A stretch of DNA of 63,190 nucleotides, the filler included, from Licmophora abbreviata (taxonomy: Eukaryota): the NCBI GenBank assembly GCA_900291995.1. It is 9 parts of 9 records of this genome, joined end to end, with 100 filler letters (N's around TTAATTAATTAA, not from the genome) between each part and the next. Parts side by side here need not be neighbours in the genome. Positions count along the whole stretch, not along the records: positions 28,007 to 45,876 come from OLMU01001292.1; positions 45,977 to 57,078 come from OLMU01001293.1; 7 more parts are not named here. One strand, 5' to 3'. A program made the position numbers and the translations under genes. The notes under the pieces were generated by a model. It was not told the origin of the DNA. It made no database searches and saw nothing but the letters and a program-made list of their open reading frames with translations. Within the stretch, counting starts at the first letter, position 1, and every line of letters starts with the position of its first letter. This document shows positions 11,302 through 57,180 of this stretch, one piece after another.

Positions 11302-14300
11302 ATGACTTCGCAACATGACGACGATGAGGATGAGCTCTTGTCGACTCCCACGTCGGTAGATCTAGTTGACGACCCATCCCCACCGCCACCACCGAGAAAC
11401 GAGAGTAGCAATGAGCTGAGCCTGCTTGGCGAAGGACTCGTATCGAGCGGAAAATCACCCGGTGATATCGCCGAGTTTCTCTCCGATACTGCAGGAGTGT
11501 TAATGCCGCGGCTCGTGCCGCCGACGACTGTCNNNNNNNNNNNNNNNNNNNNNNNNNNNNNNNNNNNNNNNNNNNNTTAATTAATTAANNNNNNNNNNNN
11601 NNNNNNNNNNNNNNNNNNNNNNNNNNNNNNNNTCCAGCCCGTCCTTAGCGACGGTGGCGATGACATGCCATTTCCTGAGTCCATAATGACGGGCCCGTCA
11701 GGACCATCGTCGCATGGCCAGGACGAGGTCCCGCAAACCTCAGTCCCACAAAATGATAATCCAATGAGAGAACAGGTGAACCTGAATGATATTATCGGGG
11801 CCAGCCCACTGGAAGCTGAAGCGGAAACTGCGATTCTCCGAGTTTTGGAAGAAGAAGAGCTAGACCGAGAGGATCCGGCCGAGACTCGGCACATTCTCCC
11901 GCATCTCTCGGATGAAGATGCCAGAGCCTTTCAGCGAGAAGAACCAAGCAAAGAGGCACTTCATGTTGCCGTTCCGGAGAACGTCGATCGCGTGAAGGTG
12001 GATAGTGTGCGATCGTCGTTGCGGGCAAGTGTGACAGGTCTCTCGAAGAAAGCAGGGCACTCTATCCGAACAGCGGCGACGAAGGAAGAATCGAGAATGA
12101 GAGAAAGTAAAGGGCTTGAGCACAAGCTTATTGGTCTTACCCTTGCCATGAACAGACTCCGAGCGCAGTCGGAAGCGCGTCGTTCCGTTCTCGAGGAGCA
12201 AGCACGGGAGGCCGAGGGTGGCAATGAAGAAGAAGAAGATCTTCATACGTCGGAGCTTTTTGCAGAAGATGCAATGGTAGCGAATGCCAACCGGCTCTTT
12301 CGTCGCAAGATTGGGCGGCAAGAAGGAAGTTTACATTTGAAGGGTGCCGCAGCTGCCGGCCGGACGCATACTGCTGGTCACAAAAAGACAGATAGCGACA
12401 TTGGATCTGTACAGGGAGGCGACGACGAGATAGACGTAGAGCTAGGACATGATGTTGGAGCCCCGGATGTCACGGAAGACGAACCGCAGAAGACACTAGC
12501 ACAGTTCTTCACGGGGTTGTTCGTCAAGCCGGTCAAGCAAACAGCTCGTCGAACGGGAGATGACGTCATGGACTTTGGCACCTTCCTTTCGCGAAAGAGG
12601 CGTGGGATCATGTTCTTCACAAGCGTCATTGTGTTCGGTTTGATGATCCCTCTTCTTGGTGTCGCTGCGCTGCTGTACTATGCGTTGGACAATCCTCTTC
12701 TGGAGGAAGGTGGAGCTTCAGTTTCCTGGATTCTCATCTTCGTTGCACGTCAACTTTTGATGTTGGCTTTGGCTCTTGCCTCTCAGCTTTTCACAATTGA
12801 CTATCTTTCGCTACGGAGGCGGCTCACTGTGAAAATACTTGGCTCATGGGCCTCTCTAGGTCTTGTGCAGTCCAAGGGTTATCCGTTCTTGTTGGTTTCG
12901 TGGTCATTCTACTCATTCTGCTTACTGAGTGGCACGAATCGCTTCGCACAACACTGGCTATTCTGGCAAGACTCAATCGATATGTTCAATGCAAAGAATC
13001 CCAGTGGCAACATTGCATCATCTCATATTTACCTGTCGATTCTTGGAATGGCAATGTTCAATGGGATAGTTATCGCCTTGAAACGGTTGTGGTGGGGTCT
13101 GTACGTTGGGAAGAAGTCTTATAGTAAGTACTGCGAGATTCAGATTGCGTGTCCTGGTGGCACAGATACTCCAATGTCTTATTGTTTTCGCCGTTTTGTT
13201 CCTTTAAGTTCATTTTGGTGATCAGGTGGCGAAGACCATAGAACGAATGGTTCTGATATCAGAGGTGAGCCACTTGAGCGTTCTGTGCGCCCGAAAAAAG
13301 TCCACGAGGGCGAAGATTGCTACCTCGATGGAGCGGGGCTTCGCGATGGCGCAGTACTACGAAGATTCCACGCGTCCTGCTGGTGCAAGCCGTAAATCAT
13401 CAATGGGATCGACGAGACTTCCCGCTACCGGTACGACGAAGCCTTACTCAGAATATGACAAGATTATTGACGAGGCACAGAAGGACAAGAGAACCGGTCG
13501 TTTGACACAGTCCCAGAGGACCCGCATGAATCAACTGCTAGAAGCGTAAGTACCAAGAGTGGTCATTCGTCTCAGAGGAGATCTAGGGTATGTTCATTGG
13601 TACTCACATCCCCTCGACTTCCACACTCTTTTGTTTGCAGCTGGGAGGAGCCCGAAGTTGTTCGTCACAAAAAGGTAAGGAACGGTAATTGCCACATGTG
13701 ATGCAACAGAACCTTCTCTGGTAAAAAACCTCTCATGGTAGTGTTTTCAATAATCTTCTTCCAGGCACGGGTGTCGATCAATGCGATCCTCGAATTTAGA
13801 CAGGCTTTGACGTTCATGGATTCCGACTTCGTGTTCTCTTTGTCATTTGGTCTGGCTAATAGCAGAGTGGCTTGCATCGAGTCGTCTCAGCGAGTATTCG
13901 AACGCTTGCTTATGGCTACGCCTGGCCGTCGCGAAATCCCATTCGAAACAATTGCTGTTCTTGCCACCGACGAGGATGACGGATTGTTCGACCAGGCCAA
14001 GATGAAATCTCTCATCAGATTGTTTCGTCCCGGTCGTGACGGTGTTCTGACCCTACTTGAATGGGTAAAATCGACAGATCAGGTGTACAAAGATATGCGC
14101 ATGTTGCGGGCTTCGGTCAAGAATGCAGGTCAAATAGATCACAGCTACGAGATCATCGTGAACTGGTTTTTCTTCATTATTCTTGGAATCATCACTGTGG
14201 CGGTACTGGGGTACGATCCGCTGGCACTCTTTCTTTCCTTGTCTAGCATCATTTTGGCATTCGCGTTCATGATCAGCAGTGCCAGCTCCAAGTATTTTGA

Positions 14301-14666: not shown

Positions 14667-14915
14667 GTACGTATAGAGAGCAGTTGGACGACAAGGGAGC
14701 GAGAGAGCNNNNNNNNNNNNNNNNNNNNNNNNNNNNNNNNNNNNNNNNNNNNTTAATTAATTAANNNNNNNNNNNNNNNNNNNNNNNNNNNNNNNNNNNN
14801 NNNNNNNNTAAGGAAGGGTTACCTACGGTAGAGGCACGGCACAGTCTGTAGTTGAGCTATTCTTATTGTGAATCGAAACTCCCAAGCTGTACTGGTACCC
14901 GGTACCTGCTACACT

Positions 14916-16647: not shown

Positions 16648-18794
16648 CTAGCTATCGGTAGATGTTGACATTTCCTCGTCTGCGCTCTTCTGTGTACCGA
16701 CGAGTTCAGCAGGCGGTGACAGCGCCGGTAGAATGGAAGGATAGGGTTCGCACAGCTGTGTACAGAGGACGATCTGACTGCTTGTTCTCCCGTGTCTATG
16801 ATCCAACTCAGGCCACGGTAAACAGATCGCATTATAGATGCGCAGCTGCGCCCCTCTTTGCAGCTTCTGCTCACGAGCCGTTTCAAATGAAAAGGAAATC
16901 CAGGCATAAAAGGCACTTGTGGTGCCGTCTGGCTTCTGAGCTGCCCGTTTCGAAGTGGGGACGATGCAGTGTACGAAACCCAGCACAGTGACATGCGCCT
17001 GTTCTCCTTTCCACGGAATCGGAGGGCCGCAGACTGTAACATCCATAAAGAGGGCGGCCCGTCGTCGTGGGTCGTTGCGGTCAAGAGAAATTCCCAATCT
17101 GGGGAATGGATACATGCCGCTCTGAAATCGANNNNNNNNNNNNNNNNNNNNNNNNNNNNNNNNNNNNNNNNNNNNTTAATTAATTAANNNNNNNNNNNNN
17201 NNNNNNNNNNNNNNNNNNNNNNNNNNNNNNNGGTCCGGCTTTGAGTTTTCTCGACCGACGACGCTGGTGAGAGTGAGGTGCGCTACCATTGCTATTAGCA
17301 GCGGCGGTTGGAGAAAACACGCCACGCGGAAGAGGAGTTTGCTGGGACGGATCGAAGTTCGACGGTTGGGTGGCAGGAGCGTCTTGAACTTCGTCGGTCT
17401 GCTGTCGTGGCTTGGAAGTCCAAAACGAAGGCGCAAAGGAAGGGGCCGTTTGACTCTTTTTCGCGGTCTTTTCCGACGCCTGTGGCAGACTTCGCGGTTC
17501 CTTCTTCTTGTGGAAAGACGACAATGCACTGTGTGTATTCAAAGCGTCCAACAGCGAGCATCCCTTCTTGGTCTGGAATGGATCCGAGTTGAGGAGGTTC
17601 TTACTGTTCCCTGGTGGTTTTCGCCTCTTGGATATGACTGAGGGCTGCTGCGACAGTAGACCACCCGAGCCTCGACGTCCACCCCAGTGTTGAGGTCTGT
17701 AGCAAAGCATATATATAAGTCCGTTAGAAGTCTGCTATCTCTAAGCATTTGCCCACGTGTTCCGAGCGAATATCTTACCGTGATCCCACAATCGACAAAT
17801 CCGACGCTTCGCTTCGAAGAGGCTGTGACAAAGACGTCTGATGCGATGCCACCGCTGACCGCGCTTTCTTCCGAGGACCGTGCGACGCGCTCCGCTTTCG
17901 AGCGCCCTGGCTCACGGCCGACAGCTTTCGATTCTTGTCCAGTTCCGCTAGCAGGCGTGTGTTGTGTACCGGTTCCGAAAAGTGGGATGAAGTCACCGTA
18001 ACTGTGCTTCTCTTTTGATGATGATGGCGCTGGCGTTTCATCTCCATCTCAAAGGGCAGGTTCGCGACGGGCCGGTCGTCTGGCCAGATGCGACTCGTCG
18101 CCTGCTGCGCTGCTAGCGGGTGGCTACTGTGCTTTTCGCAAGCGCCTGTGCCCCTCGTTTCCCAGCTGGAATCCTTATCCTCCTCCTGCATTTGCTGTTG
18201 GGAGAAGCGCCATTCATTGTCGTCGTCGTCGTCGTCGTCGTCGGGATGCGGGAATTCAGGCTGTGAATCGTGGCTGAAGTGCTGAGCCGCTGCCACTGGA
18301 TGCGACTCCGTCACCGCATCAAGAGCAGGCTGCTGCTGCTGCTGCCCATCATTTTCCTGCTGACTCTGCTCATCGTGTACGCTCTTCTGGCTGACTTCGG
18401 CCGATCGTTCGGCGTCAGTCCGAGAATTCAAAAGAAGATCCTGTAATGACGCAAATGCCCCCTCTTCTTCTTCCTCCGGCTGGCTCTCATGCTCAGACGA
18501 CGCATACGACGAGTCATCATCGTCACCCTTAATGGCTCTTGCGACAGCTTCTAGACGCCTCCGTCTCTTTCGTTCCCGTCGAGGCAGAAGATTCAGCGGT
18601 GCAGCTGCGCCCTCCAAAGCGGACGGCGACTGCGAAAGCTGTGATGCCGGAAGCAGGTCCTCAGTACGAGCGTGTGGTAGGAAGGCATCCTTGTCAGAAT
18701 CTGTGGGGCCTTCCAGATAGATGATATCACCACAATCGTCGTCCGAGTCGCCATAATCGTACTGCTGTGGGTCGTAGTCGTCGTACGGGTCCAT
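16648..18794 (-). CDS. Largely disordered protein with C-terminal OB-fold, SPIDR-like
   Basis: ATG 18794 (MDPYDD); intron 17778-17697; gap 17132-17231. C-terminal ISFSFETA...LRIYNAICLPW...IVLCTQLCE resembles the SPIDR OB domain. The join across the gap is inferred. Confidence 0.5.
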
Positions 18795-20926: not shown

Positions 20927-21656
20927 GACCAAGACACGACGGCGCTGCTCAAGAAAAAAATGTGGCCATCACACGAAGTTTAAATTAATCATTTATACAA
21001 TCTTTATTACTAGTATCGTATGGTCGAACTGTTTTGCGGCATTGCTCGTCGCGTGAAGTCAACGTCTTCTAACGGATCTCTTATGTATATGGGTCGAGGG
21101 CGCGCGCGCCAGCCGAGAATGCGTTTCAACTTTCAAAGTTTCCATACAAACTGATGAGAGTTGACGACGCAGGACAGACATCGAATACGACGTACCGATA
21201 GGGNNNNNNNNNNNNNNNNNNNNNNNNNNNNNNNNNNNNNNNNNNNNTTAATTAATTAANNNNNNNNNNNNNNNNNNNNNNNNNNNNNNNNNNNNNNNNN
21301 NNNCAGGGTTTCCCATGCATATCACGCGATGACGAGCACGCGCGCACAGAGTAGCAGAAGGCAGAACATTTTAGTTTTTTTTCAAACGAGAGATCGCACG
21401 GAGGCAACAGAACACAGAACAGAACATACCGAGTACCTGTGCCTGTACCGGTACAGAAGATGCGATGGTGAGAACTTTCACTCTTTCATCGTCGACTGTA
21501 CATAGCCTACCGTCGTAGACAAGCGATTTTTTTCTTCCGGCCACACATTGACTTCGGACGAGGGAGTTTCAGCATATTATTATTTAGACGTGGACACGGG
21601 GCAGGGGGTCCGTCGTGGTCGTGTCTCAATTCGAAGTTTCAGAGGCAGCAAACAGA

Positions 21657-23924: not shown

Positions 23925-25425
23925 ATGGGAAATCAGTTTCATGAGTGCCTGTGCGTTTGGTTGTGTTTGAACGCTCTTTTGGTGAATGGTTTCGTCGCGC
24001 AATCCTCGTGTCATCGGTCGCTACTCCGGTTGACTGCCGCGGGTGCTGACATTGAACAGTCTCCCGCTGGCACAGCTTCTAGGGCTCCACAAAGACCGTC
24101 AGACTCATCGATGTCACCGCCCAATAGAGGAAATGTCAATGAAATTGATTTTTGCATCGCACCTGCAGACGTGTCTCTGTCACGGTCCTACAGCATCAGC
24201 GCCGCCCCTGATGTCGACGGTAGTACCAGTACACCCCAAACACTTTCCCTAACAAGAGCACTCAACAATGCCTCGAATCGTGCGATTCGGCGAATATTGT
24301 TAGCTCGATCATGGCCTTCGGCGGAAGCTTTGAATCTCAGTTTGAGACAGGTACTAGCCGAACGAGCAGCTAAAGAGCAAAAACAGTCGCCCGATATCCC
24401 ACTGGAAGACGACGAGGGACAGCAATCAGGCGGGTCGGAATATGTAGATAGCAGTGGTAGTTCTGCAAAGTGCCCGGTGCCCCGGCCCATTTTGAATATT
24501 CTTATGCGACGGAGGAATGATCCACAGAACGCTGTGTCAGGTGAGGGCGACAAGACTCCACGTCCCCGAAGTCGAACGGACGAAGAGTATGTGGCGGATC
24601 AGATTCGTGCATTTCGGGATCGGTACAGTGTCCTTCCAGGTTATCCTCTTGCAGAGGCATACTTGGAGTGTATCTTGAGCTTGGCGACTAGTGGGGTTGA
24701 GTCCACCCGCGTGGAGGAAGTCATGGAAGGTGGAGCATATGACAATTCCTATCGCCGTGTCAAAGTCGTGTTGGCTAGCGTCGGAGTTGTATTCGAACCG
24801 CTCCCAAGTCACCCCAGTCGGCAACGGATTGCAGAAAAGTTGATTGACCAAGACATCTGTCTGTCAATGTTGGACAAGATCAGCCTGAAGATGGAAGACG
24901 CCGGCAAGAACGTGACAACAACACGGCACCTGTCCGAGAACAAGACTTCAGATGCCGGGGAGGAAGCAGAGTGGGAGGATGCTGAAGCCGAGGAGTTGGA
25001 GGAGCTTCCAGAGCGAAAGGAAAAGAAAGGAAATGGCGAGGGAAAATTTTTTCTTAAGTTTTGGANNNNNNNNNNNNNNNNNNNNNNNNNNNNNNNNNNN
25101 NNNNNNNNNTTAATTAATTAANNNNNNNNNNNNNNNNNNNNNNNNNNNNNNNNNNNNNNNNNNNNATCCTGGACCGACACATCTTGACACGTGCACCTTC
25201 CAGGTGTTGAGTGACGACGGCACGATTCTCCAGTACAGAGGGTTCATTGATCGAGGGGCTCGGCTGGAAGCTCGATTCTCCAAGCGTTCTATTCGAATCC
25301 GTGGATCAGTCATGTTCCAGATGCGGGACGGCGACAATGTTATCATGGGAGAAGACTACTGGAGAGATATGCTACCGATCAACTACAAGACTGGGACGAC
25401 CAAGTTTGTCATGACCAAGCAATAG
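23925..25425 (+). CDS. Plastid-targeted protein of unknown function spanning a gap
   Basis: Signal peptide + NG-FVAQ from ATG 23925; open to gap 25066; probable C-terminus 25166-25425 (...GTTKFVMTKQ). The join is inferred. Confidence 0.65.
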
Positions 25426-27886: not shown

Positions 27887-28747
27887 CTTGTAAACGAAAT
27901 TGAAATNNNNNNNNNNNNNNNNNNNNNNNNNNNNNNNNNNNNNNNNNNNNTTAATTAATTAANNNNNNNNNNNNNNNNNNNNNNNNNNNNNNNNNNNNNN
28001 NNNNNNCACTACGCAGGATAGCACTGCGAGGGTGACGAGACAGCGGCAAGGCTGCAGCCGTACCAGTAGTCGTCATTCGTCATTGTTGGAATTGGGCTTG
28101 GGAATTGGAGATCTGGAGTTGAGGAACAGGTTCTGAGCGCCAATCTGAAATCGTAATGCGACCATAACCCGATCGCACCGGCGGGGGAGAAGGAATAACA
28201 TCAACTGTGTCATGAGGGAGCTTGGGACGACATCAGCTGAAATGGAGAAACAAAGTGAGGTCGGAAGAAGGTCCAGTACTGCTAGAGATAGTCCTTCCTG
28301 TAATAGCTAGCTACTTTGTCCTAGTATTGTTCTCCCAAACAATTTACCGCCATGCTAAGCTCGGTTCGAGACCGCCACCGTCCCATGTTCTAGGATGACG
28401 ACAAGCAGCTATACACCAGCATGGTATATTCCTGATAATCAATCAACATGGTAAGGGTGTGACGCCGATGCTAATGATGATGTGATGTGAGATGAGATGA
28501 CACGCACCCCATTTTGAAAAGAGCTCGTCACTTGGGGAGCTCGGGACCTCACTTGCGATTTTTTTTCTTTTACGAGCTCGTAGTCACAAAAAGCTCACAC
28601 CATTCCCCACTGATGGTTTTGGCTGTGAAGCTGTGTGCTCGTTGTACATGCCTTCTTCCATTGGCTCTGATGTATTGCTGTGTTCGGCATCATACAATAC
28701 CCGGACGCTGACGAAAGGCTCTTCTCTTGCCCCCTGCCGCCACATCC

Positions 28748-44498: not shown

Positions 44499-45077
44499 CT
44501 AGTCGATGGGTGGGCATGGACTGTTTTCTTCGTCTTCCGCCGTGACACTGCCGGCACCAGTAGACGCCCCTTCCACTGGAGCCTCTGCCTTGTTGGCTCG
44601 ACGACGCTTAGAGGTGGCCCTCACTAGCAACAAAGCAACAACAGCAACGCCCGCAAGACATGCAAAAACGATTCCAGCAGTGGCTCCACCGGAGAGAGTG
44701 CTTTCCGAAGACGAAGGGGAATCTGTACCAAGAGAGTTGACCTCTTCGCACAGGACTCCTCTGAACTGGGATGGGCAGTCACAAACAAAGTCTGTCGCGC
44801 CAGCAACAAAGGCATGCTCGTCCGATGCATGGTCACATTGGCCCCCGTTCTGGCACAACAATGGGCAGGCTTGCTCGCAGACGGTGCCCATGAATCCGCT
44901 TGCACAAGAGCAGAAGCGCGCTTTGCCTAGATCGTTGTTGCATGTGCCTCCATTCAAACAGTCGACGTTCCTGCTGCAAACGGCATGTGCCACCGACAGA
45001 AGTAGGAGAAGAACAAGAGTTCTGAGGAAGAACGTAGCGTTGGGGCGGGTCTTCGAAGGTAAGGCTCGTTTCAACAT
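44499..45077 (-). CDS. Type I membrane protein with two EGF-like domains
   Basis: Signal peptide; CLNGGTC...CSCASGFMGTVCE; CQNGGQC...CDCPSQFRGVLCE; TM helix plus KRRR. Confidence 0.88.
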   Translation of the reverse strand: MLKRALPSKTRPNATFFLRTLVLLLLLSVAHAVCSRNVDCLNGGTCNNDLGKARFCSCASGFMGTVCEQACPLLCQNGGQCDHASDEHAFVAGATDFVCDCPSQFRGVLCEEVNSLGTDSPSSSESTLSGGATAGIVFACLAGVAVVALLLVRATSKRRRANKAEAPVEGASTGAGSVTAEDEENSPCPPID

Positions 45078-45206: not shown

Positions 45207-45338
45207 ATGGCCTTTTGGAGTCTATACGCTGGACTCATAAGTAAAAACGAATGGCCTTTTGCAGTAGATATGCTGGTACTCATAACTAAAAATTATGGCC
45301 TTTTGGAGCCTATACGCTGGCACTCTTAAGTACAAAGC
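45207..45338. repeat. Three imperfect tandem 44-bp repeats (ATGGCCTTTTGgAGyctATAcGCTGG.ACTCaTAA...), partial fourth at 45391
   Basis: Units start at 45207, 45251 and 45295; partial ACGGCCTTTTTGAGCCT at 45391; AT-rich divergent intergenic region. Confidence 0.88.
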
Positions 45339-45550
45339 TAGCATAGAATGGTATATAATAAAAAGAATTGAAGGTTTATAAAAACTAATTACGGCCTTTT
45401 TGAGCCTGAGAAATGCCTTCAGTTATCGGAGTTACCGGTACATACCTGGTTGTACGAGTAGGCTCACAATTTCGATCCTAAAACCTACGAACAAGTAGTC
45501 TAGGTCTACCTGTAGTAACCCTGTACCTTGGTACCCAAACCGCTCCAACC

Positions 45551-47086
45551 ATGAAGTTCACACCGAACACTGCTCTACTCTTTGGTGCCATCTTGCACCG
45601 CTTAGTTGCGTCGCACGCTCAACATGAAGATGAGCTGGAGTGCACTCATGGGACGCTGTATATGAGCGACCTCAACGCCGCCAAGCTCTACACGTTCGAT
45701 CTAGACGACGGGCTCTCTTCTCTCCAGGTCGAAAGTACTCTAGACGTCCCTGGAAATCCTGGCCAGGTTCTAGCGGTTACGGGTTCGGGGACAAACATTG
45801 CGTCTATGTTTCGAGGAACGGCTGGCATCTTCTTCACTGATGGCCGCGTCAACTTCATCAAGACAGGCGTGTCGACNNNNNNNNNNNNNNNNNNNNNNNN
45901 NNNNNNNNNNNNNNNNNNNNTTAATTAATTAANNNNNNNNNNNNNNNNNNNNNNNNNNNNNNNNNNNNNNNNNNNNCCCTCCCTCCTCACGAACGCTGGG
46001 TTCGACTGTGAACGCCCAATTCACTTTGTTAATCACGACGGCAAGGTTGCCATCTTCTGCGACGGGTCCGTTGACGCCATGCCCAACCAAATCAACTCGA
46101 CCGTGTGGGTTCTAGACGAAACTCTCATGGGAACCACCGGTAGCGCCATCGTCTTTAACGAAACTCTTCAAGGAAGTCACCATGGAGTTGCCATCCCGGT
46201 GGATGACGATCATGTCTTGTACTCCTTGGCCACGCCTGAGCGTGTCGCCGGACTGGAGTCAAGTTCACTTCCTGATACCTTCCAAGTCGTGGACTACGAC
46301 GGCAACGTGCTCCACTCGCTCGACGACCCAGCCGATCCCAGCAAGTCTTGTTCTGGATTCCATGGCGAGAGTAGTCTTCCCAACACCTTCTCTCTCGCCT
46401 GCAACGACGAGCACGGTGGAATCCTCATCGTAGATTACGAGCCGACGTCTGGTGCGTACACCTCGCGAGCCCTCTCCTATCCCATCGATGAACATCGGAC
46501 CGGGACCTTTGCCGACCACCACGACAGCCCCTACGTCGTCGGAAACTTCGCTGGAGAGAACACCGAGTTCCACCTTATTGCGTTTGATCCCATGCAACAG
46601 ACGTCCATTGAAATGTCGCACATTCTAACCCTGGAGGCGCGCCAGTGCTCCTTTTCCTTTGAAAAGGCGCATGGCGAGGTGCTTCTGGTGTGGCTCCCGT
46701 CGGGCAAACTTCAGGTGTACGAGTTGGAACCGGAATGGACCCTAGTTGACGAACTTCAAGTCATTCCAGGCATGGTCTCTTGTACCGAGGCCTCCATGGT
46801 GGCTGGATACGGCCAGGCTTTCATCGTTGCCGCTGCCGCCCAAAAGCTGTACGCTCTGGACCTTGAGCACGTGCATGAAGCGGGAGGCATCGACATGTAC
46901 GAATCCGATCTCGGGTTCACGCCTAACTCGGCGATCGTTGCTGGCGTCCCGGATGGATTCGAATGCGAAGAAGAGCACGACGACCATACGCACAGTCCCA
47001 CTCCCGACACGTCGTCTGCATTCTCTTCCTTCACCACTTTCAGCGCTACTCTCGCGGTCGCATTTGGAGTGCTGAGCACTGTCTGA
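45551..47086 (+). CDS. Secreted, probably GPI-anchored AztD-like metal (zinc)-binding beta-propeller protein; spans a gap
   Basis: Signal peptide; after the gap, in frame, PSLLTNAGFDCERPIHFVNHDGKVAIFCDG; HHGVAIP; CSGFHGES; EEEHDDHTH; SSA plus hydrophobic tail. Confidence 0.7.
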
Positions 47087-47553
47087 ACGAAGATTCGGAT
47101 GGAAGACCAAACAAATGAGTGAACGCAGGCCTTGGCTGCCCGGCAATAATTGTTATAGGATCGTGAAGTTGAATCACCAACTTAGTCAATAGTTGAGTAT
47201 ATGTAGCAAGCAGGGACCACAGCAGCTAAGCGTCAGGGAAGAACGTGTTGCGGGCTTGATTAGTCAACTTTGTAAGCGAGCATGAGGGTGGACGAAACAT
47301 GCGTATGGAAATGAGGCGTAGTCTACTAGCGTTCGCTGAGGAGGGGTACAGTGATGCTTCCACAGCCCTAAGGTATAATTCGTGCCTCCTTCTAATTGTG
47401 CCACCGCGCACGTCATAGATGTTCTACCAGGTAATCTTGTCAGAGCATCGTGTCCACGTACCGTGCATACAGAGTGATGACTTTCTGAAACGTCGCCAAG
47501 TTCGGACTAAAAAATTTGGTACGCCACCGATCAGCAGTCTTCCGGTAGCAAAC

Positions 47554-48583
47554 TCAGCGCCCAGAGCCGGTTTGATAGTTTCGAGGGTCAAATGCTTGTT
47601 GTTGTTTTTTACTTTCGGGGGCCTTGAAGAAGGGAATGCTGGAAAATGTCGATTGGTCATCCGTGGCCGTGTGGAAGAAATTGGAGTTCGAAAAGCTAGT
47701 GCTCGGGAATGGATCTGTAGCATCCGAGTTAGAAAAGAATGAGCCGAGATTGCTTGCGGTAGGCGAACAACTTTCCTGTGCTGGCGGCGTGGTATCCCGG
47801 GGTGGTGCTGACAAAGGCGTCCCCGGCCCTCGAGCGGGTGTGTCGTTTGAAGGTGGTTTCAACGAGAGACCTTTCCCTGCGTCATGCCCTCCTGCTGTCC
47901 TTTTCGCTATGGAAAAGAAGACAAATCGTCAGGGTTAGCCAGCTACGCTCTTCGGCCAGTCCCCTATCGTTTTCCATTTGCGACAGACGATACTCACCAG
48001 CATGCTTTGGGATGGACACGTGAATCTTTTCTCCCTTCTTGATGCTATAATCTCTGGCCGGACCACTAAAGGCCGGGACAGGATTCTTTTCCAGTTCTTT
48101 TTCCCGCCGCGAGTCCTCTAGTGATGTATTAAAATCAAAGGCATCGTTTCGTTCATTGAATGCCACTCCGATGAACATGTGTCGGCCATTCGCATTCTCT
48201 ATCCGCAAAACAAAATACCGGCTCGAGTCGACGCATCGGTCGACTGCTCCCTCTTTGACCGGGCACACGGCAAAAATCGAACCCTTGCTTCGATCCACTA
48301 ACAATACTGCCGTAAGGTCTCCTCGTTCCACGACTTTGACTGTTCCTTGCCAGACTTTCTCAGTCCAGTCCGCGCCCCGCCATCCAGTCGACGCCGATGG
48401 TCGTGGGGGCAGTTTGAAGACATGAGCATTCTTAATTGTACAACGGACACGTTCAATGATCTCAGCGTCCTGTAGCGATTGCAAAAAGACAGCCGCATCA
48501 CTCGCAGTACCGTGACCATCGTCCATGGCACCGGATGGCGACGTACGACTCGCGGCATTCCCACCACCGGACGATCGTCTCAT
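47554..48583 (-). CDS. NECAP: NECAP (adaptin ear-binding coat-associated protein)
   Basis: HVFKLPPR...GWRGADW, DSSRYFVLRI, FIGVAFNERNDAFDFN, DYSIKKGEKI; intron 47997-47907. Confidence 0.9.
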
Positions 48584-56794: not shown

Positions 56795-57180
56795 TCGGAC
56801 TTTTAGCTTCTGTGGTCGAGTAAGCGGTCGAATGACTGGTCGGTTGAGCGATGATGATGAGTGAAGCGGACGCGATGAGATGATTTTATGTTGATGAATG
56901 TTGCGAGCGAGTTTCAAGTTGCGATTGCATTGCCGCGCGACGCGCGAGAGGCCCGGCCGGCGCGGGGTCGTGATGAAGTTTGAAAGTGCGGGGCGTGTGA
57001 CATGACGGGGGACGCGACAGCACCGCCAACATTGAACATGGGTGACTGAACTTTATACGCTGCTTGCAAGGATGGATTNNNNNNNNNNNNNNNNNNNNNN
57101 NNNNNNNNNNNNNNNNNNNNNNTTAATTAATTAANNNNNNNNNNNNNNNNNNNNNNNNNNNNNNNNNNNNNNNNNNNNAA

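Follow-up and report, generated by a model that had tools for sequence, protein, structure and literature searches.

The question raised by this locus is whether a diatom displays on its cell surface a relative of the bacterial zinc metallochaperone AztD. We analysed a 63,190-nt stretch of Licmophora abbreviata DNA (GCA_900291995.1), called the window below, in which a gene on the plus strand at 45551-47086 (ATG at 45551, stop codon at 47084-47086) had been described by a first-pass annotation as an AztD-type beta-propeller, acquired from bacteria and redeployed as a glycosylphosphatidylinositol (GPI)-anchored metal-scavenging protein. The coding sequence is broken by an artificial contig spacer at 45877-45976, and its translation is available as a left part (P0001, 109 aa) and a right part (P0002, 369 aa, the C-part). 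We concluded that the gene represents a eukaryotic form of the AztD kind, distantly related and probably tethered to the membrane, and is not an AztD equivalog; sequence comparison and structure models support an extracellular 8-bladed beta-propeller homologous to bacterial AztD.

An NCBIfam scan of the C-part gave a single match, NF038015 'zinc metallochaperone AztD' (E 1.1e-20, 73.7 bits), and a Pfam scan of the same part gave no match. Because 73.7 bits is far under the 400-bit NCBIfam cut-off, the gene was classed as a distant relative of AztD. The same model was the sole match for 12 of 12 relatives, bacteria-like ones included, at 44-156 bits, all of them under the cut-off. A sequence search of the Protein Data Bank (PDB) returned two distinct matches only, both of them AztD (Citrobacter koseri 6cmk, E 6.7e-9; Paracoccus denitrificans 6ck1, E 6e-4). 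A word-indexed homologue search, with 4757 candidates, found 103 homologues down to E 6e-138, and a profile search of 1.84 billion representatives gave 728 proteins at E <= 1e-3 and 151 at E <= 1e-30. The homology is considered to be above chance because of the NCBIfam and PDB E-values and the 103 homologues.

Two proteins were folded by AlphaFold with family alignments, the C-part itself and P0005, a full-length homologue that is 56% identical. The P0005 model reached a predicted local distance difference test (pLDDT) of 91.0 and a predicted template modelling score (pTM) of 0.88. When it was compared with the PDB by Foldseek, ranks 1-9 were all AztD (E 1.9e-22 to 5.2e-17), with target-normalised template modelling scores of 0.82-0.86 and root-mean-square deviations of 2.8-3.7; the next match had an E-value of 2.5e-10 and a score of 0.17. 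The C-part model (pLDDT 90.5, pTM 0.85) gave the same order, ranks 1-9 being AztD (E 6.2e-16 to 3.5e-12) and the next match following at 6.8e-9. The ESM Atlas provided weak leads only, among which an 'AztD' cluster ranked third (0.78). The first-pass annotation had made its AztD-type propeller depend on a profile or structural match; such matches were found with NF038015, among PDB sequences and at Foldseek ranks 1-9, and the propeller assignment is borne out by all three.

Does the diatom protein keep the zinc ligands of AztD? As described in the available parts of PMC6689063, to which our statements from that paper refer throughout, AztD carries two zinc sites and zinc passes to AztC from site 2; in P. 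denitrificans AztD (PdAztD) the site-1 ligands are His124, His167 and His218, and site 2 is formed by His99, His102 and Asp104 together with the C-terminal His408, which is conserved in 68% of AztD. In a HMMER alignment of the C-part to 6ck1_B, His16 (PIHF; 46022-46024) corresponds to PdAztD His124, His69 (the second His of SHHG; 46181-46183) to His167, and His129 (CSGFHGE; 46361-46363) to His218; the His codons of SHHGVAIP lie at 46178-46183. These are the motifs that had been called hallmarks of AztD before any alignment, and they do fall on the site-1 ligands. Conservation was counted over 109 family rows and 75 more distant rows. The His16 column holds H in 109/109 family rows and 71/75 other rows, and the His69 and His129 columns each hold H in 108/109 and 73/75, respectively. 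The two Cys flanking GFHGE match, by alignment, the conserved AztD disulfide; this pair, C125 and C142 in the C-part, is Cys in 109/109 and 108/109 family rows, respectively, and in 74/75 other rows for each column, and the two residues are probably bonded. Given their equivalence to ligands in the crystal structures, the His residues would be expected to cluster in three dimensions.

The equivalent of site 2 lies partly behind the spacer. In an alignment of 10 full-length homologues (A1), the N-part stops at column 122 and the C-part begins at column 136, and the homologues have 13 residues (9/10) or 9 residues (1/10) between these columns. Both sides are taken as one gene with ~13 codons missing because A1 leaves 13 residues in 9 of the 10 homologues. 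The hidden residues read xxHGDHxH/Dxxxx in most relatives, and by this alignment the site-2 HGDHxH/D hairpin falls in the 13 residues behind 45877-45976, in line with the earlier proposal that the gap conceals a His-rich loop. Over the family rows the hairpin columns hold H in 85/109, H in 67/109, and H or D in 69/109. The C-terminal His/acid patch EEEHDDHTH (46967-46993) stands directly after the last conserved Cys and the last strand, where the bacteria-like P0104 and P0105 have an EEEEHDH end; by its position, it may be the counterpart of the C-terminal His completing bacterial site 2. Hairpin and C-terminal His patch co-occur in the family (36/22/12/28 of 98 rows, Fisher p 0.002).

The spacer itself consists of 44 N, TTAATTAATTAA and a further 44 N. 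It is one of eight identical 100-nt joiners in the window (11533-11632, 14709-14808, 17132-17231, 21204-21303, 25066-25165, 27907-28006, 45877-45976, and 57079-57178), and therefore its length is arbitrary and the apparent frame across it is meaningless. Any open reading frame (ORF) of the window that seems to end at or to cross one of the eight spacers is an assembly artefact. The left part has the C-terminal end FIKTGVS, with 45875-45877 reading acN, and the right part begins PSLLTNAGFDCERPIHFVNHDGKVAIFCDG. Positions 45977-46078 read PSLLTNAGFDCERPIHFVNHDGKVAIFCDGSVDA and are in frame with the ORF starting at 46079, as had been proposed. The full-length homologues P0005 and P0031 each gave one collinear tblastn segment over 45638-47074, and because they align as a single segment the gene is read as having no intron. 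Here, too, the earlier reading of an intronless gene agrees with the result, as does its assumption that the two sides of the gap belong together: in the same 10 full-length homologues they correspond to successive stretches, with ~13 residues missing. Sequencing reads mapped to 45977-47300 gave 10 short contig pieces of 95-313 nt, 9 of which were at least 99% alike and none of which reaches the gap; two of the 10 came from a run guessed to be RNA. There was no RNA run among the public sequencing runs in the matches listed, the best of which were marine metagenomes sharing at most 0.33 of words.

Read from the sequence, 45551-45619 encodes a probable endoplasmic reticulum (ER) signal peptide, MKFTPNTALLFGAILHRLVASHA, and the N-termini of 10/10 full-length A1 homologues have the same M-K/R start followed by a hydrophobic stretch. 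Since QHEDELECTHG comes next, no aromatic residue follows the likely signal cleavage site. The N-terminal strand and the first propeller blade or blades (45620-45876) align with residues ~20-100 of full-length homologues and hold the first conserved Cys (ECTHG; C in 94/109 family rows) and a short His/acid run, HAQHEDE. The remaining AztD-like blades, as placed by the AlphaFold2 model and Foldseek, occupy 45977-46966 (P0002 residues 1-330) and include a conserved NST sequon at 46094-46102. At the C-terminus, ECEEEHDDHTH (46964-46993) is followed by SPTPDTSSA and a 21-residue uncharged tail. By inspection and hydropathy, 47012-47083 resembles a GPI-attachment signal: the small residues S-S-A come first, then a brief polar spacer, and the end is hydrophobic and carries no charge. 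Beyond the last charged residue the chain runs on for 25 residues, and mean hydropathy over the last 18 residues is 1.62. All of the motifs named in the first-pass annotation (HHGVAIP, CSGFHGES, EEEHDDHTH, and SSA with its tail) were found where it had placed them. Small residues, a polar spacer and a hydrophobic end without cytosolic residues are the classical layout of a GPI signal. The diatom protein, with its ER signal peptide, small omega residues, polar spacer and hydrophobic end, fits this layout by inspection and hydropathy, and its GPI anchoring is likely.

All named organisms among the close homologues are diatoms: Cylindrotheca fusiformis, C. closterium, Nitzschia inconspicua, Amphora coffeaeformis, Seminavis robusta, Fistulifera solaris, Cyclotella cryptica, Phaeodactylum tricornutum, Epithemia clementina, and a Bacillariaceae metagenome-assembled genome (MAG). 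The best match is 70% identical, so the window's own species is missing from the collection. The homologues are annotated as hypothetical, with the sole exception of a C. closterium protein that carries the automatic UniRef label 'Alkaline phosphatase'. We classed the C-termini of 108 family rows and scored each for the presence of at least two His in the 20 residues that follow the last conserved Cys. A GPI-like end (hydrophobic, with at most 6 residues after it), the type of the window gene, was found in 65/108 rows, 47 of which had at least two His. A transmembrane helix with a short cytosolic tail was found in 20/108 (at least two His in 1/20), a Cys-rich tail in 13/108 (0/13), and another kind of C-terminus in 4/108 (3/4); 6/108 were truncated, with 0 of 1 scored and 5 not scored. 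The P. tricornutum protein XP_002178201.1, with the tail ...KKREKKALFDLEKANKGQSA, exemplifies the transmembrane type: a stalk, a transmembrane helix, and a short tail containing ExxxL. In a close diatom-type relative, P0120 (757 aa, from a Logan contig), which shares 57% identity with the C-part, the C-terminus is formed by a Hint module (PF01079, E 2.5e-20), which suggests hedgehog-like autoprocessing as a further way of tethering. The NxS/T sequon is kept in 100 of the 102 family rows having the Asn, and eight Cys are near-invariant. The four different tethers, the sequon and the eight Cys argue for an extracellular, membrane-proximal role. The window gene belongs to an algal family that is old and diversified and uses several kinds of tether.

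Where did the family come from? Two trees were built, both unrooted and with most rows lacking a taxon label: a FastTree of 184 rows (what was left of 219 domain rows, each spanning at least 340 profile positions, once 35 near-duplicates had been removed) and an IQ-TREE 'quick' tree of 78 rows (74 chosen group representatives and 4 of 49 named bacterial loci). They agree on the groupings. The diatom family forms one group (SH-aLRT 98); a group containing Symbiodinium natans and an MMETSP transcript joins it (SH-aLRT 99), a group containing Rhodomonas salina joins next (SH-aLRT 92), and a bacterial (alphaproteobacterial) Bosea-type group then joins the algal rows (SH-aLRT 97). In a genome scan that used the four-row sister clade, and by design recovers that clade only, this nearest bacterial group comprised 49 loci in Bosea, Chelatococcus, Microvirga, Pleomorphomonas, Bradyrhizobium and Beijerinckiaceae. 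The propeller domains of Diplonema lie among bacteria-like rows, and a single eukaryotic clade was rejected by the approximately unbiased test (p-AU 0.0012; the group was named after the tree had been seen). The trees are most simply read as a single ancient transfer into algae, the donor being alphaproteobacterium-like, though this reading is not proven. Of the earlier idea of a horizontally acquired and redeployed protein, the bacterial origin is compatible with the tree, but the gene is not a one-off redeployment, being a member of a diversified algal family.

Evidence on the role of the propeller comes from fusions, detected by a Pfam scan of 19 family hits that were long or had been selected. 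In Diplonema papillatum, four predicted gene models on two contigs (P0126, P0195, P0272 and P0273) fuse propellers to ZIP. In KAJ9458053.1 (P0126) five propeller stretches accompany a Zip domain at 2114-2422 (E 5e-52), in KAJ9459350.1 two propeller stretches accompany a partial Zip, and KAJ9459351.1 and KAJ9459353.1 have ZupT-like ends in NCBIfam. These models carry 1-5 propellers and are annotated merely as 'Histidine-rich membrane protein KE4-like'; the second propeller of P0195 and of P0273 has lost the site-1 His. Among bacteria-like sequences, P0147, P0163 (SAR202 MAG) and P0217 join a related propeller to ZnuA, and P0175 joins one to ZinT. Most of the fused propeller domains retain the site-1 His. 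The fusions support a zinc-uptake role for the propeller domain and suggest that a ZIP can act as the receiving partner in a eukaryote.

Zinc capture at the cell surface with hand-over to a transporter is the best-supported mechanism for the diatom protein, and we consider it rather probable. The protein would enter the ER through its N-terminal signal peptide and would probably be N-glycosylated and disulfide-bonded, and a GPI anchor near S346-A348 (P0002 numbering) would probably leave it on the outer face of the plasma membrane. It retains the three-histidine site of the pore (AztD site 1) and, judged from relatives, would expose a second site made of the HGDHxH/D hairpin and EEEHDDHTH, perhaps with the HAQHEDE run. 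Zn2+, or possibly Co2+ or Cd2+, would be captured from sea water at the cell surface and then passed to an importer in the membrane, for example a ZIP transporter, in a hand-over that would mirror the transfer of zinc by bacterial AztD from site 2 to AztC. We infer GPI anchoring, metal binding, transfer to ZIP and regulation by metal supply from these comparisons. A wider proposal is more tentative, and we are inclined to doubt that it holds as a whole: that inducible high-affinity Zn/Co uptake in marine phytoplankton has a missing extracellular part, which captures zinc and consists of the AztD-like propellers of diatoms and of related dinoflagellate-like and cryptophyte-like sequences; that these propellers are tethered to the plasma membrane by GPI, a transmembrane helix, sterol (via Hint) or a Cys-rich tail and deliver the metal to ZIP transporters from the site formed by the His hairpin and the C-terminus; that this partnership was made permanent in Diplonema by fusion; and that the family came by one ancient transfer from an alphaproteobacterium-like donor.

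Several observations weigh against zinc capture as the function, beginning with the AztD profile score under its cut-off. No aztABC, cluster A-I binding protein, ZIP, ABC or COG0523 gene is found near the locus in the window; an azt association is found in only about half of bacterial AztD (PMC6689063). The Bosea-type 'cluster 4' AztD are described, in the available text of Neupane et al. (2019; PMC6689063), as being without an ABC-transporter link and possibly having a new function, and the one Bosea locus that we checked has no zinc gene within 5 kb, the neighbours being MFS, GtrA, CMAS and EamA only. The site-2 hairpin is unreadable in the window gene, and some family members, that of P. 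tricornutum among them, have it in incomplete form. The co-occurrence of hairpin and C-terminal His patch was lost on phylogenetically independent pairs (4.3 the same way vs. 1.9 the other, median p 0.69). A three-His site leaves the identity of the metal unfixed. Finally, the ZIP-fused propellers of Diplonema sit elsewhere in the tree and not close to the diatom clade, and for this reason the fusions back the role of the domain and not the diatom clade directly.

Four other explanations were weighed. The apparent gene might be an assembly chimera of two genes, its halves lying on different contigs joined by an artificial spacer, or it might be bacterial contamination. Such a reading is contradicted by the collinearity of the homologues, whose consecutive parts match the two halves, by eukaryotic genes on both flanks, and by diatom proteins as the closest relatives; the same divergent EGF-protein neighbour also stands beside a homologue on metagenome contig L002. 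We rejected it as scarcely credible. That the hydrophobic C-terminus is a short transmembrane anchor instead of a GPI signal, or that the protein is merely secreted, is unlikely in our view: 20 of the 108 relatives do use a true transmembrane helix with a cytosolic tail, and the GPI layout was judged from general sequence rules, but the tail has only ~15-21 moderately hydrophobic residues with nothing after them, S-S-A and a polar spacer precede it, and 65 of the 108 relatives have the identical layout.

With the fold and location as proposed, the ligand could be Cu, Fe, Mn, Ni or a metal complex, and the nutrient served by the family would then not be zinc. Neither His3 nor His/Asp sites are specific for one metal, diatoms have surface iron receptors that are propeller or transferrin-like (ISIP1, PMC5955625 and PMC3491386; ISIP2a, PMC9010474; as described in the available parts of these papers), and the nearest bacterial clade is without a clear zinc context. 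However, all the fusion partners found that have a known role are the zinc-uptake proteins ZIP, ZnuA and ZinT, and the equivalent site-1 and site-2 ligands bind zinc in crystal structures (PMC6689063), which makes another ligand a minor prospect. We find still less probable a surface protein outside metal transport, for instance a receptor, a protein for adhesion or associated with the wall, or an enzyme, perhaps a phosphatase, in which the His residues would be structural or catalytic. The UniRef label of the C. closterium homologue points in that direction, beta-propellers serve many roles, the transmembrane-type and Cys-rich subfamilies have lost the site-2 hairpin and the C-terminal His patch, and the available text of the AztD authors calls the role of site 1 unclear (PMC6689063). 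On the other hand, there is no phosphatase or other enzyme family match in Pfam or NCBIfam, AztD is the only family and structure match, and the three pore His are nearly invariant over 184 bacteria-like and eukaryotic rows.

The flanking genes encode a SET-domain protein, an FHA protein, a Cpn60-like ORF, a WD40 protein, a DUF1681/NECAP-like protein, an MFS transporter, a ubiquitin-domain protein and an EGF-like membrane protein. Because these are ordinary eukaryotic genes, they support a eukaryotic, nuclear gene; the diatom assignment of the first-pass annotation agrees with the SET, FHA, WD40, EGF, NECAP-like, MFS and ubiquitin-domain neighbours. The window contains no second copy of the AztD-like gene. 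Head to head with it lies the EGF gene (44499-45077, minus strand), which encodes a small single-pass protein with a signal peptide, two EGF-like modules, a transmembrane helix and a short tail. A counterpart (32% identity, E 4e-22) is located at L002 1444-1929 (minus strand), beside a 50%-identical AztD-like homologue on that metagenome contig, and the EGF protein has only two further homologues in a collection of 5.8 billion proteins. In the Phaeodactylum-type loci L003 and L004 a RING/PA protein is found upstream in place of the EGF gene. The arrangement could be a conserved divergent pair or simple synteny. The 473-bp intergenic region common to the two genes contains three tandem 44-bp repeats (45207-45337; consensus starting ATGGCCTTTTGGAG) and a degenerate copy at 45391-45404. 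The repeat motif has 5 matches in the window vs. 0.46 expected, with 4 of the 5 in the intergenic region, and was found in 0 of 53 fetched loci; the repeats could serve as a regulatory array in cis or be no more than a minisatellite. The downstream neighbour (47882-48583, minus strand) encodes the DUF1681 protein, NECAP-like and endocytosis-associated (E 7e-47).

No eukaryotic AztD was found in the literature searched, which was judged partly by title and the start of the abstract, in agreement with the earlier claim that no characterised one exists. The P. tricornutum accessions B7FTS9, XP_002178201 and EEC49866 had no mention in the literature searched, which included one supplement file of PMC9010474. 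AztD is treated as bacterial in PMC6689063, on 577 sequences from bacterial taxa, and the present family would extend it to eukaryotes. Diatom carbonic anhydrases are supplied by zinc, cobalt and cadmium, of which surface sea water contains little. How zinc is concentrated at the diatom surface is only partly explained, ZCRP-B being the ligand proposed so far (available text of PMC9010474). A second, unrelated and widespread membrane-tethered family that keeps the zinc ligands of a bacterial metallochaperone of solved structure would be a candidate testable by mutation, as well as a potential biomarker of metal stress. The family also presents one ectodomain joined to four different membrane tethers.

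Compared with AztD from P. denitrificans (6CK1) and C. koseri (6CMK/6N01), the diatom protein has in common the 8-bladed propeller, the three site-1 pore His, the conserved disulfide, and an extracytoplasmic location with a signal peptide; the HGxHxD/H hairpin and the C-terminal His-rich end of AztD are seen in the relatives of the diatom gene. It differs in its ~20% identity, in being encoded by a eukaryotic nuclear gene with no AztABC or AztC partner, in having six additional conserved Cys together with an N-glycosylation sequon that is likewise conserved, and in its GPI-like membrane tether, whereas AztD is a free periplasmic protein or a lipoprotein. The Bosea-type AztD, the nearest bacterial group in the tree, have all the ligands present, but are bacterial proteins of 425-445 aa with no membrane tether and are not in azt operons. 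The Diplonema KE4-like proteins (KAJ9458053.1, KAJ9459350.1, KAJ9459351.1 and KAJ9459353.1) are likewise AztD-like propellers of a eukaryote, most of whose domains have the site-1 His, and their ZIP/ZupT-like fusion implies a probable role in surface metal uptake; they differ in having 1-5 propellers covalently fused to the transporter and in their different part of the tree.

Among diatom metal systems, as far as the available parts of the cited papers describe them, ZCRP-A is a COG0523 protein and ZCRP-B is NikA/CntA-like (PMC9010474), and the distinction that the first-pass annotation drew between these two and the present gene holds: no family-5 solute-binding protein domain was found in Pfam or NCBIfam scans of the C-part, and the fold is a propeller. 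ISIP1 resembles the AztD-like proteins in its signal peptide, predicted single beta-propeller ectodomain and C-terminal membrane anchor, and its transmembrane helix and endocytosis motif resemble the layout of the transmembrane-type members, a likeness drawn by description only (PMC5955625; PMC3491386). ISIP1 is described in the available text as 7-bladed with a Cys-rich centre, as having no prokaryotic homologues, and as serving siderophore-iron endocytosis (PMC5955625). ZCRP-B (Kellogg et al., 2022; PMC9010474) differs in being a solute-binding protein with an N-terminal transmembrane helix, unrelated to the propeller in sequence and fold, and it is backed by proteomic and localisation data, whereas the AztD-like family is known here from sequence and models. 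What ZCRP-B and the AztD-like family may have in common is the part proposed for ZCRP-B, that of a membrane-tethered extracellular Zn/Co ligand feeding ZIP transporters.

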